DNA of 64,000 nt, taken from NCBI GenBank assembly GCA_010405405.1, contig MU004236.1, forward strand, positions 1,618,070 through 1,682,069, written 5' to 3'. Under the pieces are notes generated by a model. It saw nothing but the letters and a program-made list of their open reading frames with translations, searched no databases and was not told where the DNA came from. Of this stretch, positions 7,674 to 14,458 are shown in pieces (within the stretch, counting starts at the first letter, position 1; each line of letters opens with the position of its first letter). The DNA is from Microthyrium microscopicum (Eukaryota). A program made the position numbers and the translations under genes.

Positions 7674-8099
7674 TCATGAAATCAGTCTTCTAGGTTTGAG
7701 ACCAGTTGATGGAGTTTTATCATACCCCTGTTGGCCGGCATTTCCACCACTTTCGGAGGTCATTTGATATACACTCCATAAATTCTGGCCTCCACACATT
7801 TGGAAAGGATATCCAGCGCAAGGATTGTTGCAAGAAGCTCCATCAACTAGAGCATCGTTTGGAGGCAGTGAGTCGCCACAGTAGCAGTCGGTTCCATTGA
7901 CTAGACCCATTGTGATGTGCTCAAGCTGAAAGCATGTATTTCGGCAGTACCCAACAGATTGATAGATGTCAGACCGCTGAAAATGCATAGGGACGTAGTT
8001 GTAGCATCCAACGTAAGCTGAAGTCTCCTGGGCTGTTGAAGGAGCGCCGAGAAAGGCTAACGCCGTGGTGGCAAGATATGCCAACCATGGGAAATGCAT
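7674..8099 (-). CDS. Small secreted WSC-domain protein
   Basis: Signal peptide MHFPWLAYLATTALAFLG.. followed by WSC pattern YVGCY...QSVGYCRNTC...GLVNGTDCYCGD...CNNPCAGYPFQMCGG..LWSVY. No TM or GPI tail evident. Confidence 0.88.
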   Translation of the reverse strand: MHFPWLAYLATTALAFLGAPSTAQETSAYVGCYNYVPMHFQRSDIYQSVGYCRNTCFQLEHITMGLVNGTDCYCGDSLPPNDALVDGASCNNPCAGYPFQMCGGQNLWSVYQMTSESGGNAGQQGYDKTPSTGLKPRRLIS

Positions 8100-8676
8100 G
8101 TTTGAGTATTTGAGAACAAAATCTGTCTATGCAGGTGTTTAGGGAATGTGAAATCGTCAATATAGACGGAGGACAGTTATGACGGTATTGTGAACGCCTT
8201 TTTACCCCTTTCAAATTGTGGTGGCAGTGCAACATGCCATCTGATTGGTGGAGGCTTAACAGCCTACGGGTTCAGCCTTATAGGTGCAGAAGGCTGAATA
8301 TTCACTATTCACCCATCATTTACTTGATCTTCTAACTTCCAGCAGTTTCTTTCTGTCAGACGAATTATCTCCCAGTGGCGCGTCATTGCAACTTTTCAGC
8401 TCTCATAAGGTCGCACCAGTTTTTATCTTCTCCATTATATCGACAGTTTTCCTGACGAATTGCAGTTCATAAAAAGTAGGAGGTGAAACGCCTGCTCGCC
8501 AGTACATTCGTGGATATAAGTATACGAGGGAGATGTGGGCGGTCCTCTTATTTTTTGCTGCTGTCAGTGGCCACTTATACGTTATGAAAGGATTCCAAAG
8601 TCACAGACAAGGCGTCATTGGTCTTTCAGTCGACTCAGCCTCGACATTTCTCTTTTAAGCCATTTACAGGGATCAC

Positions 8677-9096
8677 GCGGGCTTTGCTGAAGAGCCACTC
8701 CAGAGCCTTATGGAAGCCTATTTCAATTTGGATAACATAATAGCTGACATCGAAGGTGTCGATCGGGTTTTGAAGTTGAGGAAGCCCAGGAATGGGGAAG
8801 AGTGAAGGTGAGCTTTGTCGACAACACAGGCCATTCTGCAATACCTGGGCTGCTGACATTGCACTAGTAAACATTCCAAACCGCTTTTGGGACGTTGATC
8901 GGCAGGTCCCAACCTTGATAACAACTGGAAGCGTTCATCTCTCTCAAGAGCAGCCAAAGACGTCCATGCGTTGAGCGTGACAGTTCTGGCTGAGGACAAA
9001 AGAGTCAAATGGAATCACAAGAACTCCAATGAATAAAAGAAGATCCTGAGCTTACAGAAGTGGAAATGCAGATGCATTCAGACGCTGATCAAGTAA
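8677..9096 (+). pseudogene. Probable decayed gene fragment of unknown family
   Basis: One reading frame (AGFAEEPLQSLMEAYFNLDNIIADIEGVDRVLKLRKPRNGEE*...AAKDVHALSVTVLAEDKRVKWNHKNSNE*KKILSLQKWK) spans a canonical 60-nt intron at 8808-8867 (GTGAGC..GCTGAC..TAG). Exonic stops are TGA, TGA and TAA. Confidence 0.4.
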
Positions 9097-9132
9097 GCTA
9101 TGTGCCACCTTTAAGTGCGAATCCGCATCGAT

Positions 9133-9251
9133 TGCGATATCTACCACCAAGTGTGATATCTACCACCAAGTGCGATATCTACCACCAAGTGCGTTATCTA
9201 CCATCAACTGCTATACCTACCATCAGCTGCGATATCTACCATCAACTGCGA
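9133..9251. repeat. 19-bp minisatellite, 6 copies plus a partial
   Basis: Unit TGCGATATCTACCACCAAG at 9133, 9152, 9171, with drifted variants (..CCATCAAC / ..CCATCAGC) at 9190, 9209, 9228. No spacers. Confidence 0.92.
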
Positions 9252-9938
9252 CGGTTATGATCATCCTTTGTGCTAACAAATGCCGTTTCTTCTGATAACA
9301 GACAACATGAATTAACATTACGTATATCGATACTTAAGAGCACCCAACAAGGCAACAGAGAATCTATGTGATGTCTGCCTCATTTAGCATCTGAAATGTA
9401 CGGGGCTGTGTCAGTAAACCTGAAAAAGGAGGCGGCTTTGGAGGCTGAGCAGCCACTGCAGCTTCAGACGCACTGCACGTTGATGGGCGTACGAGACATA
9501 GCCTGACGAGATCAAGATTCTTTGCTAACAAAGTTCCTCTGGTTTTCATGAGAATTTCAGATTCGATATTTTTGCAACTTGTCGTTGCGCACTGCACGTG
9601 AAACCTTCAACGATCATCTCAACAAGCATATTATATCTCATAGAAGGAAGCATCCTGCTCAGGTGTACTTACCATCCGGTTTATCCTCGACACCACCACT
9701 TGCATATTGCCCCGCACCACTATCTTCACCGCAAGGAACCAGAGCCTTATTGCATATCATTTGGGCAATTACCACAGAGCCCATTTGTTCATGGCCAAGT
9801 CGAGATGACTTCAAGCATCAAGCCAAACTTCGATTAGGTCAGAGTAAGCCATGTTAGCCCAGCCTGACGGGTAAACACACTTTCACTCGCGAGTTGCGAT
9901 CAAGCCAAGCTCGACGATATAGAGTCCATCGTCTTGCA

Positions 9939-12900
9939 ATGGATCCTCTGTCAATAACGGCGGCTGTTGTTGGTCTGCTCACCGGATGTGGCAAGATTGG
10001 ATTTGCCTTGAAGGAATTCCATGATGGCTCTAACCATGCCTCCACCGCTGTCAACGGCCTCATCCTTGACGTGGAAGGTTTTGTCAAAGTCTTGGAGCTC
10101 ATGAAAGCCACGATTGAGCAGCCAAGCATCCAGACATCACTGCACAGTACTGGCCATATCGGCAATCACTGGAGCAACATCACAAAGCTCATCAATAATG
10201 CCCAGCAAACCCTTGCTAGGCTGAGCGACATGCTCGAAAAGGTCAACAAGAGCGTCAAGTTTCTTGATGGAGCGAGAAAACATCTTCGACTGAAGTCTGC
10301 ATCTGAAGAAATTGCTACTTTCCACCTTGAGATGAAATCTTACAAAGATACGTTACAGCTCTCGATACAAACTGTGATATCGTAGGTGTTTGAAACCTTC
10401 AAAAAAAAAATGCAGGCTTACTAAACGTGCCTAGGTGGAATCAAGTCAACTTTCAGGAGTCCACAAGTCAAATCTTACCTAGCTTGGAAGACTTGAGTTT
10501 AGAGGTTAGACGGATTGCCTCAGTTCTTCGGGAGCGAATGATTCAACTGCAAAGCACTGGAGACTCGACCATAGAACAGCATCAGCTTATAACTGCTGAT
10601 AATTTGACAAACTGTGTCCGCTCCGCTGCCTCAGTAGTTTCATCTGCGTCGACCATTCTTGGAATCTCTCCTGAAAATAATGTCCCGGGTGCTCAATCAT
10701 CAGAATTCGGAGACTGTTTTCCGATCGAACACAACGAGACCATGCAAAGATGGTTATCCTCCGTTAGTGTGTACAGATCAGGTCCTTCTCGGGTGCCGGA
10801 CGACACAAGAAGCGCCATATGGCCCGCTGAAGACAACGAAGTTCACCATTCAGATTCTGACGATGACCTGGAGCAAGAGATCGTTCAAACACTTCTCGAA
10901 AAAGGAAAAGAGAAACTCACTTCAGACGACATAGTTGCTGCTGAGCGTCTATTTCTTAACTGCCTTGCGCGGAGCTACCAAGTCAGATCTTTGAGGCTGA
11001 CTTTCGAGCAACCAGTTCTTAACCTTTTGAAGGAGATATATTACTCTCAGGAAGACTGGAGCCAGCTTCAGGGTATATTGATAAAGCAAGTGGCACTACA
11101 ATCACGAATTGCTACCAGAGGTGGCGATGACGGGCATACTCTGCTTCTTGAGCTCTCTGATGCGCTTCTGAAGCTCAAGAATTATACTGAAGCTCGTCTG
11201 TACGGTAGAAGAGCTCTCAAAACAGCCCGCAAGCGTCAAGCATCATCCAGAGTGGAGGCTACTCGAGCTTCTCTAGATATGCTAATTAGCATTTGCCAAG
11301 CTGATAATGATTTGGATGGGCAAGAAGCCTATCAGCTGATATTGACTGATCTAATTCAGAAGACCAAGTTGCAATCGACTGGGTCCACACTGCCATCTTC
11401 TCCTTCTGAAGTGCAGAATAAGATTCTGACTGAAAATTCCACAGCAAATGCGTCTCATCTCAAATCCGCGTCTGCAGGCCTTGTTGGCTTAGAAACTGAG
11501 CATGAGCGTCGAGAAACACGAGAAGAGCTACAACCAAGTGATGGAGAACAAGGTTCATCGCAGCCGCAATCCACAAGCATAGCCCAACCTATTGAGGCTT
11601 CACCTATTGGCGATTCAAGACCAGTGCAATCCTCAGAGATAGCATTGAATGCTGCAAGGTAAACGCGACATGTGAGCAGAGAAAAAGTTGCTAATGGTTA
11701 ATAGTTCGAAATCACTCGAAATATCGAGGCCAGAAGCAGAGATTTCAAGAATGGTTGATCATGCGTCTGTTATGCCAGGAAAACACAGCACGGAAGGCCA
11801 AACCTATAACGAGTCGAACCCAAAATCTCGACACTATATACATTCCGAATACGATCCCTTCAGAATTTCAAGCTCATTAAGTCTGGAACTTCGACCCTCC
11901 TCAGTAATTCTTCATGCTAGCCCTGTGCGTGATGTCGCTGTAAGCCTGGTTTCTCTAGAGCAACAGATCGTTTGTGATGGCGAAGCTACCATATCTTCTT
12001 CCTCTAATTTGTCTCTTGCAAGTACTGGCGGAAGACGAGAGAGGCAACTGCTAAATTCAATGAATGTGGAACAAGCACATACTGACAATACTCTGCCATT
12101 TCCAAGTGCTGAGTCTTCCAATTCGGAAGACTCAAAATCCATTTCTGCAATACAACTTGCTGGTGTCCAAATCTGGGCCGTGACGAGTGAATCCAAGAAA
12201 GAAACAATAACTTTGGCGACAGGTTTAAAGTTGATGGACACGCAAACCGTTATGACTGTTAACGCCTCTGAAAGGCTCGCTTTCAAGCTGGCTCTGGAGA
12301 AACATTTAAGAAATTTCACATATAACGCAATGCCCGTTATCGGAAATGGCGCGTGTCTTGAAAACGTGGTCCTACTCATCAACGGCAGCTATCACGATCT
12401 ACCTTTAGAAGAGAGAAACGTAGAACTGCTTCTGCAGGTGGCTCGAAAATGTAAAGCCATCATCTTTTATCAACTCTCACCTGATCGAAACAGGGATATA
12501 CTGAGTCTAATACGACAATACAAGGGTCAAAAACAATCCAGAAAGGCCATTCTGCTCTCCATTGCCAACACTAGACCTCAGATCTCAATACTCGAAACCT
12601 CTAGAATATTCGCTGAAGGATTGACTCAATCTCGTTTTACAGCAAGACAAGCCAACCAAGCCATTTCTAACATTCCAAGACTCTTTCTGTCACCGCTTGA
12701 TAGCCTGCGATGCGATGCTCGGAGAAAAGTTGTAGTTGTAGGAGACCCCATCCAGGGAAAGACGGCTCTCATGATGTAATCCTTCTGTATAGTCCTTCAT
12801 TGGGATACTTGTGCTAACATCTCCTGCTCTAGCCGATTTGCGCGGGGCGAAATGATTGAGGTAAGAACAGATCCTATTGATGTCTCTGATGGTCGTAGCT

Positions 12901-13564
12901 TGCTAAGATCCATAATCCAGGTTAACAGGGCAACGGTGGGTCTTGACCAGTACGTTGGCTGGGGTTATTGTGTGGATCAAAAAGTCGAGCTGTCTATTTG
13001 GGATACACCAGGAATCGAAGATTATGACAGATTACGCCCACTATCGTATCCTGATAGTCATGCTATCCTGATATGTTTCGGTATTGATGCTCCGGACTCA
13101 CTCGATAATGTACAGGAAAAGGTTTGTGTGTCTATGCTTTCTAGTAGATGTCGCTTTTGGTATCGTGCTAACACAAGAGAATAGTGGATACCTGAGGTGC
13201 TCCATTTCTGCAGTGGACTGCCCATAATTCTTGTAGGCCTAAAAAAAGAACAGCGCACCAATTCAAGTACAATCGAAGACTTGCATAAAACGGGCCAAGT
13301 GCCTGTTACTATGGATCAAGTAAGACGATGTTTTGGGTACAAGTACCATAACTTGCAACCAGCTAATTGATCTTGTAGGGAGAAGATGTTGCAAAGAGGA
13401 TAGGCGCTGTAGCGTATTTAGAGTGTTCAGCTTTTACAGGCGAAGGCGTCACTGAAGTATTTGATCATGTTGCAATGGTAACTACCCAGTCTGTTGCAGT
13501 CAAGACGACGACGAAAAGCCTTCGCACGCGACTAGGTATACGAAAGAGTCAAATCAGAGAATGA
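9939..13564 (+). CDS. Chimeric protein (~1095 aa): HeLo-like N-terminal domain / TPR-like helices / degenerate P4-ATPase P-domain fragment / degenerate Rho1-like GTPase
   Basis: Exons 9939-10381, 10435-11658, 11705-12775, 12833-12860, 12921-13121, 13185-13319, 13379-13564. All six introns are GT..AG, 46-63 nt, with CTAA-type branch sites, and keep frame (3288 nt total). N-terminus [20 protein letters not shown] is typical of HeLo-like fungal STAND N-terminal domains. C-terminus contains [55 protein letters not shown], which is Rho1-like. Confidence 0.82.
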
Positions 13565-14152
13565 TCTCACAAATTCAACCGGATGTCGAAGCTCCAGATC
13601 TCGACTAGCGTTATGGACTACATACTTAGGTTTAAAGGACGGATATAATTTTGATTCGATGCAGAGATATCTTAGGTACCTACCTAAGTTACCCAAGGCC
13701 AAGAGTGCAGACGGGTACTCTGGTTGTTCCGCAAATATGATATGATGCTAGGGTGTTCATGCACGCGGTATATCAGGCACTCAAACATTGCCATCTGGTG
13801 AACGATGGGTATCTCTAATGCAACTCTGAGCATGCTCTGATATCGGCGATGCGATGTAGTTGGACAGCGATGAAGTCAACACTGGGCCCTGGCAAAGACT
13901 TGCAATGACGAAGGGACCCAGTCGCGTGCCGTGGACACTAAACAAGACTAACACTGAAATCGACTAGACGCTGATCTTGCTGGGCCTCGGGACGCTCGCA
14001 GCGTGGCAATGGACACGCGAGTGACGCGACAAAATGATATCCATAAGAACCAAGGTTTCGCCTGTGGTCTATACCATATCGTTAGTACATAGCCGTGCAT
14101 AGGGGAGTGGTAAACACGCTCCTGACACGCTGCCACGGTGCTGTCACGGAGC

Positions 14153-14458
14153 TGTCACAGACTAGGAGCAAGGTAGAGTATTCTAATTGGTTGATAATTA
14201 TTAATAAGAAAGAATATTAATAAATCTAGGAGCTATCGGAGTTAAGGGAGTAAGTAGTAAGGATAAGGGTCGTGCAGTATATATTCAGTTTATGAGTAAA
14301 TTTATTTTTAGATCTCGTATTATCCTTATAGAAACTAAGCCGTAATTCTATACATAATAATGTAATAGCCTAGCCGCTTATAGCTTAGCCTAAGCCGTAA
14401 ACTAGCAAACTCTCTTTAAGCTAACCACCAGCCAACCACTAGTTCAATTCTCGCAACA
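14153..14458. mobile_element. Probable RIP-mutated solo LTR (306 bp)
   Basis: AT-rich, TpA-rich island bounded by TGTCAC...GCAACA; flanks GGAGC and GTAGC give a 4/5 TSD match. Confidence 0.5.

Follow-up and report, generated by a model that had tools for sequence, protein, structure and literature searches.

A spliced gene of Microthyrium microscopicum predicted to join HeLo-like, TPR, flippase-like and Rho1-like modules

HeLo-like domains are presumed executioners of fungal regulated cell death. To our knowledge, published accounts treat them either as lone domains with amyloid motifs or as parts of NACHT/NB-ARC receptors. In animals, pyrin acts as a guard of Rho GTPases, and the hydrolysis-deficient atypical Rho proteins Rnd, RhoH and RhoBTB are controlled by binding partners, not by the GTPase cycle. 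In this work we have analyzed a gene of Microthyrium microscopicum whose predicted product contains modules of both kinds. It occupies positions 9939-13564 (+ strand) of a 64,000-nt stretch of DNA (assembly GCA_010405405.1, contig MU004236.1, positions 1,618,070 to 1,682,069 of the forward strand; hereafter the window, to which all coordinates refer). The predicted protein of 1095 amino acids (aa) starts with a HeLo-like domain and ends with a Rho1-like domain; a tetratricopeptide repeat (TPR) domain and a fragment related to P4-ATPase flippases are located between them.

The domain family PF17111 has been described as the HeLo-like domain of fungal NOD-like receptor (NLR) systems, aligning with the executioner domain of MLKL (PMC9815663, in the part of the article available), and putative integrated decoys have been proposed for fungal NLRs of Sordariales (PMC12258605, likewise in part). 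No description of a HeLo-like, TPR and Rho architecture was found in the literature, supplementary tables lying outside the search. The accessible part of a survey of fungal small GTPases in 56 genomes makes no mention of HeLo, TPR or multidomain proteins (PMC8146680). The Big Ras GTPases (TBRG-1 family), considered as a possible identity, were rejected: according to the same part of that survey they are a Sordariomycete group with AAA/IMAP-type annotation and another G5 motif (PMC8146680). The family to which the gene belongs is thus undescribed, though entries of this architecture sit in databases, where, as an initial annotation of the window had supposed, fusions of HeLo-like and Rho domains stand unremarked (e.g. 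'GTP-binding protein Rho1 [Elasticomyces elasticus]').

The gene and its transcript

The initial annotation, made from the DNA letters, had joined seven exons through six canonical introns into one stop-free frame of ~1095 aa. The joined exons give 3288 nt, that is 1095 codons and a single terminal stop, and the frame is stop-free, at a length that chance would not remotely produce; all six introns are 46-63 nt long, start with GT, end with AG and contain CTAAC- or CTAAT-like branch sites. A single public run was found to hold the stretch (X1, its kind guessed as 'RNA?'), in the form of Logan contigs. Its 5375-nt contig, aligned to 9800-13700, has 0 differing letters and omits 53, 46, 57, 60, 63 and 59 nt, exactly the six predicted introns, so that splicing at the junctions 10381/10435, 11658/11705 and 12775/12833, proposed for a transcript check, was confirmed. 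The contig is an assembly, not one molecule, and Logan contigs can in principle bridge overlapping transcripts; it is strong evidence for one mRNA, short of full proof. Exon 3 encodes the Rho P-loop (GDPIQGKT, 12741-12764) as well as the flippase-like piece, and the 340 codons before the P-loop are in frame with it. The flippase-like piece and the start of the Rho domain are therefore joined without splicing, and the C-terminal module cannot be an independent gene. We conclude that 9939-13564 is one expressed, spliced seven-exon gene.

The X1 contig also extends ~1339 nt upstream of 9800 (~8461-9800) and 473 nt past 13700 (13700-14173), which would correspond to long untranslated regions or to overlap with neighbour transcripts.

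The features of the gene are listed below; P numbers denote individual family proteins and A numbers alignments.

9939-10381, + strand: exon 1 (aa 1-147 plus 2 nt), with the start codon and long helices 1-4 of the HeLo-like (PF17111) domain, the N-terminal one hydrophobic
10382-10434, + strand: intron 1, 53 nt, GTAGGT..TAG, skipped in the X1 contig
10435-11658, + strand: exon 2, with the end of the HeLo-like bundle, a conserved motif, acidic linker, TPR and linker
10435-10665, + strand: last two helices of the HeLo-like bundle (to ~aa 225), placed by the AlphaFold2 helices 163-186 and 191-224 of P0024 and the family-invariant CVRSAAS..SSAST
10666-10858, + strand: conserved motif, then acidic SDSDDDLE linker (~aa 226-289); consensus SDFGDCFP and SDSDxDLE in alignments A1, A2 and A5
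10859-11347, + strand: TPR domain of eight helices, four repeats (~aa 290-452)
11348-11658, + strand: Ser/Pro/Gln-rich linker (by composition) at the end of exon 2; no family member aligns past ~aa 580
11659-11704, + strand: intron 2, 46 nt, GTAAAC..TAG, skipped in the X1 contig
11705-12775, + strand: exon 3, with low-complexity linker, flippase-like piece and Rho P-loop
11705-12056, + strand: low-complexity linker continued at the start of exon 3; predicted local distance difference test (pLDDT) ~30 in the exon-3 model, no homologues
12057-12665, + strand: degenerate Drs2-type P4-ATPase P-domain fragment (~aa 674-876; core 12135-12665)
12720-12775, + strand: first strand and P-loop of the Rho1-like domain at the end of exon 3, aligned to family Rho domains
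12776-12832, + strand: intron 3, 57 nt, directly after the P-loop, skipped in the X1 contig
12833-12860, + strand: exon 4, 9 codons, helix 1 and start of switch I of the Rho-like domain
12921-13121, + strand: exon 5, with the switch I Thr, DTPGIE (13002-13019), switch II and helix 3
13185-13319, + strand: exon 6, with LKKE (13239-13250) instead of NKxD and the Rho insert region
13379-13564, + strand: exon 7, with SAF instead of SAK (13427-13435), last helix, basic tail and stop codon, no CAAX

A conserved chassis in a fungal protein family

Pfam was scanned with six exon translations one by one at E <= 1, exon 4 (9 aa) being too short. Exon 1 matched PF17111 (formerly Helo_like_N, now PigL_N) with E 1.2e-5 and 25.3 bits over profile positions 1-135 of 209. 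The same scan contained no NACHT or NB-ARC match, and the relatives gave only chance-level NTPase P-loop matches overlying the Ras P-loop. The initial annotation had proposed an NLR-like sensor devoid of NACHT and NB-ARC; the absence of these domains was upheld, while the protein as predicted is not an NLR and the term 'NLR-like' can be applied to it only by analogy. With fungal NLR/STAND proteins it would share the type of N-terminal effector (PF17111), whereas their C-terminal ANK, TPR or WD40 sensor array is absent and its own TPR is short and mid-protein (aa 290-452).

The N-terminus of the model aligns with the N-termini of the family members, and its residues 2-474 match P0016 at 9e-90 in blastp. 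PF17111 was recognized in 36 of the 47 family proteins at E <= 0.01, in 18 of them with 27.2 bits or more (maximum 48.3 bits), and the alignment columns C206, V207, A211 and S215 at the end of the HeLo-like part are near-invariant. The relative P0024, which consists of the chassis only (the HeLo-like and TPR part) and is 35% identical to the model over aa 2-437, was modelled with AlphaFold2 from a 40-row alignment including exons 1 and 2 of the gene. The model comprises six long helices (4-224), a disordered acidic stretch of low pLDDT (228-288) and eight short helices (289-451, pLDDT ~90). In the ESM Atlas, a family member corresponding to the N-domain only (P0046) fell by features to PF17111 clusters (0.95-0.96), and by structure to a PF17111 cluster at a TM score of 0.82, followed by SesA and NACHT-associated N-domains (~0.5) and plant Rx_N (0.44-0.48). 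A helical bundle with a hydrophobic first helix is thus common to this family and to the PF17111/SesA-type N-domains of fungal NLRs and HELLP-type proteins; what follows here is TPR and a Rho-type GTPase and not NACHT/NB-ARC or an amyloid motif.

Pfam gave weak TPR matches at residues 195-266 of exon 2, and the helix-turn-helix repeats typical of the fold are present, four in number, mid-protein, conserved and not expanded. Foldseek and VIA-align searches with the 452-residue chassis model returned TPR matches only, of the kinesin light chain (KLC) and LGN type; the eight-helix fold is shared with the TPR domains of KLC and LGN/Pins at 9-18% identity, which implies no shared function.

The part preceding the TPR is conserved in a characteristic order (10607-10858; alignments A1, A2 and A5): CVRSAAS..SSAST, then SDFGDCFP..RW, then the acidic SDSDxDLE directly before the KLC-type TPR. 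In kinesin light chains, binding of an acidic LFP motif to the protein's own TPR causes autoinhibition, and by analogy the acidic run next to the TPR could act as an intramolecular latch.

A search with exon 2 returned seven long relatives, including the Elasticomyces elasticus 'GTP-binding protein Rho1' (1262-1291 aa), and a profile search gave 45 matches with E down to 0, making 47 family proteins in total with the first set. The organisms named are Elasticomyces, Cladosporium allicinum, Saxophila tyrrhenica, Cryoendolithus antarcticus, Extremus antarcticus, Pseudocercospora fijiensis, Lophiotrema nucula and Paraphoma chrysanthemicola, with one record labelled Quercus suber; judged from the members carrying a name, the family is Dothideomycete. 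Its proteins are annotated as 'Rho1', 'small GTP-binding protein' or hypothetical. The model is 30-40% identical to at least 30 members over aa 2-450, and its residues 895-1064 are 36-56% identical to their Ras domains.

A full C-terminal Pfam Ras domain was found in 15 of the 47 members, and 8 more stop 11-48 residues after GxxxxGK[ST]. One member ends ..VGDGCGKTALAK and two others in a degenerate form of that stretch; P0006, P0007, P0015 and P0042 end ..GDGxCGKTSLxQ, at the site of intron 3 of this gene. Such P-loop-truncated entries are what a gene caller that does not splice would produce, the sharing of the intron being judged from the ends of the open reading frames (ORFs). On a quick maximum-likelihood tree of the chassis, Rho-bearing members are spread across the major clades. 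The predicted family plan is a HeLo-like domain, TPR, variable linker and C-terminal Rho1-like domain, the linker being long, rapidly evolving and for the most part disordered, and the Rho module appears to be ancestral to the family and not a one-off or recent integration.

The expectation that the same chassis would occur in other fungi with other downstream modules was borne out. The linkers of Elasticomyces proteins contain SH3, in one case also WW, and these proteins carry a second Ras domain. In P0035 (660 aa) a PBD/CRIB, the Cdc42/Rac-binding motif, was recognized on the chassis (residues 612-634, Pfam 34.1 bits), and in P0030 (871 aa), sister to Rho-bearing members, Eisosome1 (622-718, 94.9 bits) and Rho_GDI (723-870, 144.3 bits) replace the Rho domain. 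The linkers of 12 further members gave no extra Pfam domain at E <= 0.05.

Several further observations concern the relatives. The second Ras domain of P0002, P0003, P0004 and P0012 (Elasticomyces) contains a 20-residue insert (VC.P...) after ..NITEK, at the position of intron 5 of this gene (which begins GTTTGT); the intron is probably shared and was left in these gene models as coding sequence. Visual inspection of linkers showed zinc-ribbon-like (CxxC..CxxC) and UIM-like motifs in P0029 (~1123-1145) and P0036 (~1108-1120, 1185-1196), three ..ALARRLQ.. stretches in the linker of P0036 and a UBA-like end in P0005, all unconfirmed by Pfam at E <= 0.05. P0021, P0022, P0028 and P0031, which form one clade, have a conserved and apparently ordered region between TPR and Rho (e.g. 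P0022 ~720-860; ..LKYLNGIIA..DWA..A.LVHLGRSE..), to which no family was assigned.

The Rho1-like domain, the flippase-like piece and the genomic surroundings

Exons 5 and 7 match Pfam Ras with E 1.9e-13 and 2.4e-3, respectively. The best matches among solved structures are fungal Rho1 chains (5zvp, 6jik and 8etd with E ~1e-22, also 3a58), with RhoA/B/C, Rnd and Rac ranking behind them. A count by eye in the printed alignment gave 39 identities to 5zvp over 50 aligned residues, and from switch II to helix 3 there is hardly any difference from Rho1. The G1 P-loop GDPIQGKT and the G3 motif DTPG are present. The position of the catalytic Gln (Gln63 of RhoA) is taken by Ile954, and the G4 and G5 motifs deviate, with LKKE at NKxD and SAF at SAK. 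The protein ends ..GIRKSQIRE, without CAAX. Compared with fungal Rho1 and animal RhoA, the P-loop, DxxG and the switch II-helix 3 segment are kept, and intron sites are apparently shared, to judge from the P-loop-truncated and intron-5-read-through relatives. The differences lie in the lack of CAAX, the Ile for Gln, LKKE for NKxD, SAF for SAK and the fusion to the end of a 900-aa protein.

These traits are largely those of the family. When 20 database Rho domains were aligned with that of this gene, all kept GxxxxGK[ST] and most kept DxxG, while 18 of them had V, I, A, L, M, F or E in place of the catalytic Gln. No CAAX box occurs in any of 15 full-length family C-termini, and a basic tail K/R-x-S-L-R-x-x-F is common to the family Rho domains, including that of this gene. 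Loss of the Gln while the nucleotide-binding motifs are kept is the signature of hydrolysis-deficient atypical Rho proteins, and the family domain accordingly reads more like a hydrolysis-deficient switch than a corpse. With Rnd3/RhoE, RhoH and RhoBTB it shares the Gln substitution and the larger-protein context, Rnd3 chains appearing lower in the list of solved structures; on sequence likeness it would constitute an independent lineage derived from fungal Rho1. A complex prediction of TPR (300-472) and Rho domain (966-1170) of P0021 with GTP and Mg scored 0.00, which gives no verdict either way.

The flippase-like piece is of another kind. Exon 3 has no Pfam match, and a word-index search with it against long proteins found nothing. 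An exhaustive phmmer search of 1.84 billion representatives returned exactly 3 matches (5.3e-7, 3.5e-5 and 4.8e-4), all of them P4-ATPase fragments by Pfam (Hydrolase, Cation_ATPase, PhoLip_ATPase_C). Among solved structures, residues 144-320 of exon 3 match residues 819-987 of yeast Drs2p with E 6.5e-5, the next being ATP11C with E 0.11. The four-way alignment A3 is collinear with only small gaps, with hydrophobic core positions kept and 25-27% identity to the P4-ATPases, the homology starting from the LLGATAIEDKLQ region onward. HAD/PhoLip clusters found in the ESM Atlas at 0.76-0.82 are a lead only. AlphaFold2, given the 3 P4-ATPase fragments as alignment, modelled exon 3 with a mean pLDDT of 41.5, exceeding 65 only at residues ~180-275, a quality insufficient for fold comparison.

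With Drs2p and other P4-ATPase flippases the piece shares the second half of the P-domain, whereas it is a fragment lacking DKTGT, TGD, GDGxND, the N- and A-domains and membrane helices. TSE stands at the TGD site (12183-12191) and ANTRPQ at the GDGAND site (12564-12581), and neither a DKTGT segment nor a membrane segment is present, so that it does not qualify as a member of the P4-ATPases. Since the motifs are lost and only a fragment remains, it cannot be a pump; by its homology it is a stretch of P-domain incapable of catalysis. As the conserved Rho domain follows it, the piece has to keep an open frame. None of the 47 family members matches aa 580-890, and among those sampled the piece appears specific to this gene, the only module that behaves like a lineage-specific integration. 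Repeat-induced point mutation (RIP) was rejected as the source of its divergence: no RIP signature was found, the indices being ordinary (TpA/ApT 0.65, (CpA+TpG)/(ApC+GpT) 1.33), unlike those of an AT-rich block described below (1.74 and 0.16).

All four module identities proposed in the initial annotation were thus recovered, namely PF17111 (1.2e-5), a TPR fold, Drs2p (6.5e-5) and Ras/fungal Rho1 (1.9e-13). Its view of the Rho1 and flippase modules as dead integrated copies fits the second, which is apparently lineage-specific and has lost its motifs; it does not fit the first, a conserved family module (full Ras in 15/47, 8 more P-loop-truncated) with GxxxxGKT and DxxG kept.

The gene is surrounded by an M28 peptidase, a v-SNARE, a WSC-domain ORF, a PAF acetylhydrolase and a KH-domain protein; there are no NLR or heterokaryon incompatibility (HET) genes among the immediate neighbours. 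Two features of the window are given here:

7674-8126, - strand: WSC-domain ORF (Pfam E 3.7e-15), 1.8 kb upstream of the gene
20000-62000: 42-kb block of 19-28% G+C with RIP-like TpA/ApT 1.74 and (CpA+TpG)/(ApC+GpT) 0.16

Yeast WSC sensors signal to Rho1, and the location of the WSC ORF beside a Rho1-derived gene may or may not be a coincidence. The AT-rich block starts ~6.5 kb downstream of the gene, and G+C is back to 48% at 62-64 kb.

Possible roles of the gene and its family

The reading that we prefer, with a probability of roughly 0.55, is that the gene is a divergent member of this family, composed of a HeLo-like output, TPR and Rho-like regulation and a changing linker, into which a flippase piece has been captured here. 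The HeLo-like domain would be a membrane-acting output, as in HET-S, HELLP and MLKL-type proteins, and the TPR together with the hydrolysis-deficient Rho-like domain would form its regulatory or partner-binding part, controlled by partners in a manner resembling the atypical Rnd, RhoH and RhoBTB. The variable linker modules would connect the protein to the cortical Rho/polarity network, and the flippase piece may be either a newly gained binding surface or a tolerated insert.

Several points weigh against this interpretation. The function of the gene and of the family is one that we infer throughout. The score of exon 1 against PF17111 (25.3 bits) is below the Pfam gathering cut-off of 27.2 bits, because in the exon-by-exon scan only 135 of the 209 profile positions fall in exon 1. 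A PDB sequence-profile search with the N-domain alignment A4 revealed no MLKL or HET-s chain, the top of its list (a fibronectin-binding protein at 4e-5, then keratins and chemoreceptors) being coiled-coil noise, and the structure searches with the chassis were filled by TPR, so that they say little on how the bundle relates to solved HeLo or MLKL structures. From the derived traits common to the family Rho domains, a single old joining of a Rho1 copy to the chassis is probable, the tree being one of the chassis without canonical Rho1. The Asp of NKxD, invariant in 14 of 14 full-length relatives, is Glu in this gene, and SAF stands for SAK; with these changes the nucleotide binding of this copy is doubtful, and it may bind poorly or be under relaxed selection. 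The gene lies on a long branch (1.81 versus a median of 0.34) joined to another long branch, its exact position being unsure. Most database members are ORF fragments, which bears on copy number per genome and on the true C-termini, and P0030 could be a fused gene model as well as a real swap of Rho for a Rho-binding module.

A guard-type immune or cell-death sensor would be an unlikely alternative. According to it, the Rho1 mimic and captured housekeeping fragments would act as baits for toxins or effectors directed against Rho1 signalling or the cell cortex, and a bait, once engaged, would release the HeLo-like domain for membrane damage. An unchanging chassis with differing downstream modules would suit baits, and the Rho/cortex network is the source of several of these modules (Rho_GDI, PBD, SH3, Eisosome1 and a second Rho), although SH3, WW and CRIB are also typical scaffold modules. 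Similarly, the flippase piece, unique to this gene, has kept its core positions and lost its catalytic motifs, but the Rho module is ancestral and not a recent integration. The proximity of the gene to the 42-kb RIP-like AT-rich block (6.5 kb) speaks for such a sensor, whereas the neighbours are ordinary genes with no NLR/HET cluster. PF17111 is established at the N-terminus of fungal NLRs and has been aligned with the executioner domain of MLKL (PMC9815663), and putative integrated decoys were proposed for fungal NLRs (PMC12258605), each in the part of the article available, but NACHT and NB-ARC are missing here. With the integrated decoys of plant NLRs and the putative ones of Sordariales (PMC12258605, in part) the family would share a constant chassis and copied housekeeping pieces lacking catalytic residues; it differs in having no nucleotide-binding oligomerisation domain (NOD), and the targeting of its modules by pathogens is an analogy only. 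The most detailed version of this idea is rather doubtful: in a NOD-less fungal guard, a CAAX-less, GTP-locked Rho1 mimic and dead cortical fragments (in this gene the flippase piece, in relatives RhoGDI, Eis1 and a PAK-type CRIB) would bait toxins or effectors aimed at Rho1 signalling and the plasma membrane, and modification or binding of the bait would free a TPR-restrained HeLo-like domain to permeabilise the membrane.

Somewhat less probable than a guard in its general form is a non-immune cortical scaffold of Rho1, cell-wall-integrity or polarity signalling, in which the N-domain would do no more than bind membrane, the TPR would bind cargo and the CAAX-less Rho-like domain would compete for or titrate Rho1 partners. 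Among the linker modules, SH3, WW, PBD/CRIB and Rho_GDI are well known from polarity factors and scaffolds, the TPR belongs to the cargo-binding KLC/LGN type, and a switch II-helix 3 segment nearly identical to that of Rho1 would suit the binding of Rho1 partners; yet the N-domain groups with PF17111/SesA domains of fungal NACHT proteins and not with known polarity proteins. The housekeeping neighbourhood, including the WSC-domain ORF, is consistent with a scaffold, while a family whose named members are all Dothideomycetes would be odd for a core polarity factor.

It is improbable that this copy is a decaying or relaxed paralogue, transcribed and spliced, with the flippase piece as neutral filler and a Rho-like domain losing nucleotide binding. 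The long terminal branch (1.81 versus 0.34) would agree with decay but may just reflect a distant host lineage. The flippase piece, at 25-27% identity to P4-ATPases and a mean pLDDT of 41.5, likewise looks eroded, against which its alignment to Drs2p is collinear with small gaps and a kept hydrophobic core. The Glu at the otherwise invariant Asp (14/14), the SAF for SAK and the failure of searches in two very large protein libraries to reveal anything closely related to this copy also point to decay, while the stop-free frame of 1095 codons and the correct splicing of six introns speak for an intact gene. Finally, the wrong joining of a neighbouring HeLo-like/TPR gene to a Rho gene, conceivable insofar as Logan contigs can bridge transcripts, is in effect refuted by the in-frame P-loop in exon 3, by the single contig removing all six introns and by the same fusion in the database gene models of 15 of the 47 relatives.

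If the gene is, as we prefer, a divergent member of a HeLo-like, TPR and Rho family, then the combination with a hydrolysis-deficient Rho1-derived GTPase would be a different control route for a HeLo-like domain. The family would likewise represent a class of atypical Rho proteins in fungi, one that goes unmentioned in the available part of the 56-genome survey (PMC8146680). Were the guard interpretation true, it would be a fungal counterpart of pyrin-type Rho guarding and of plant integrated decoys. With changing linker modules, and with chassis, candidate baits and output domain combined in one polypeptide, the family lends itself to a direct test of the idea of fungal decoys.

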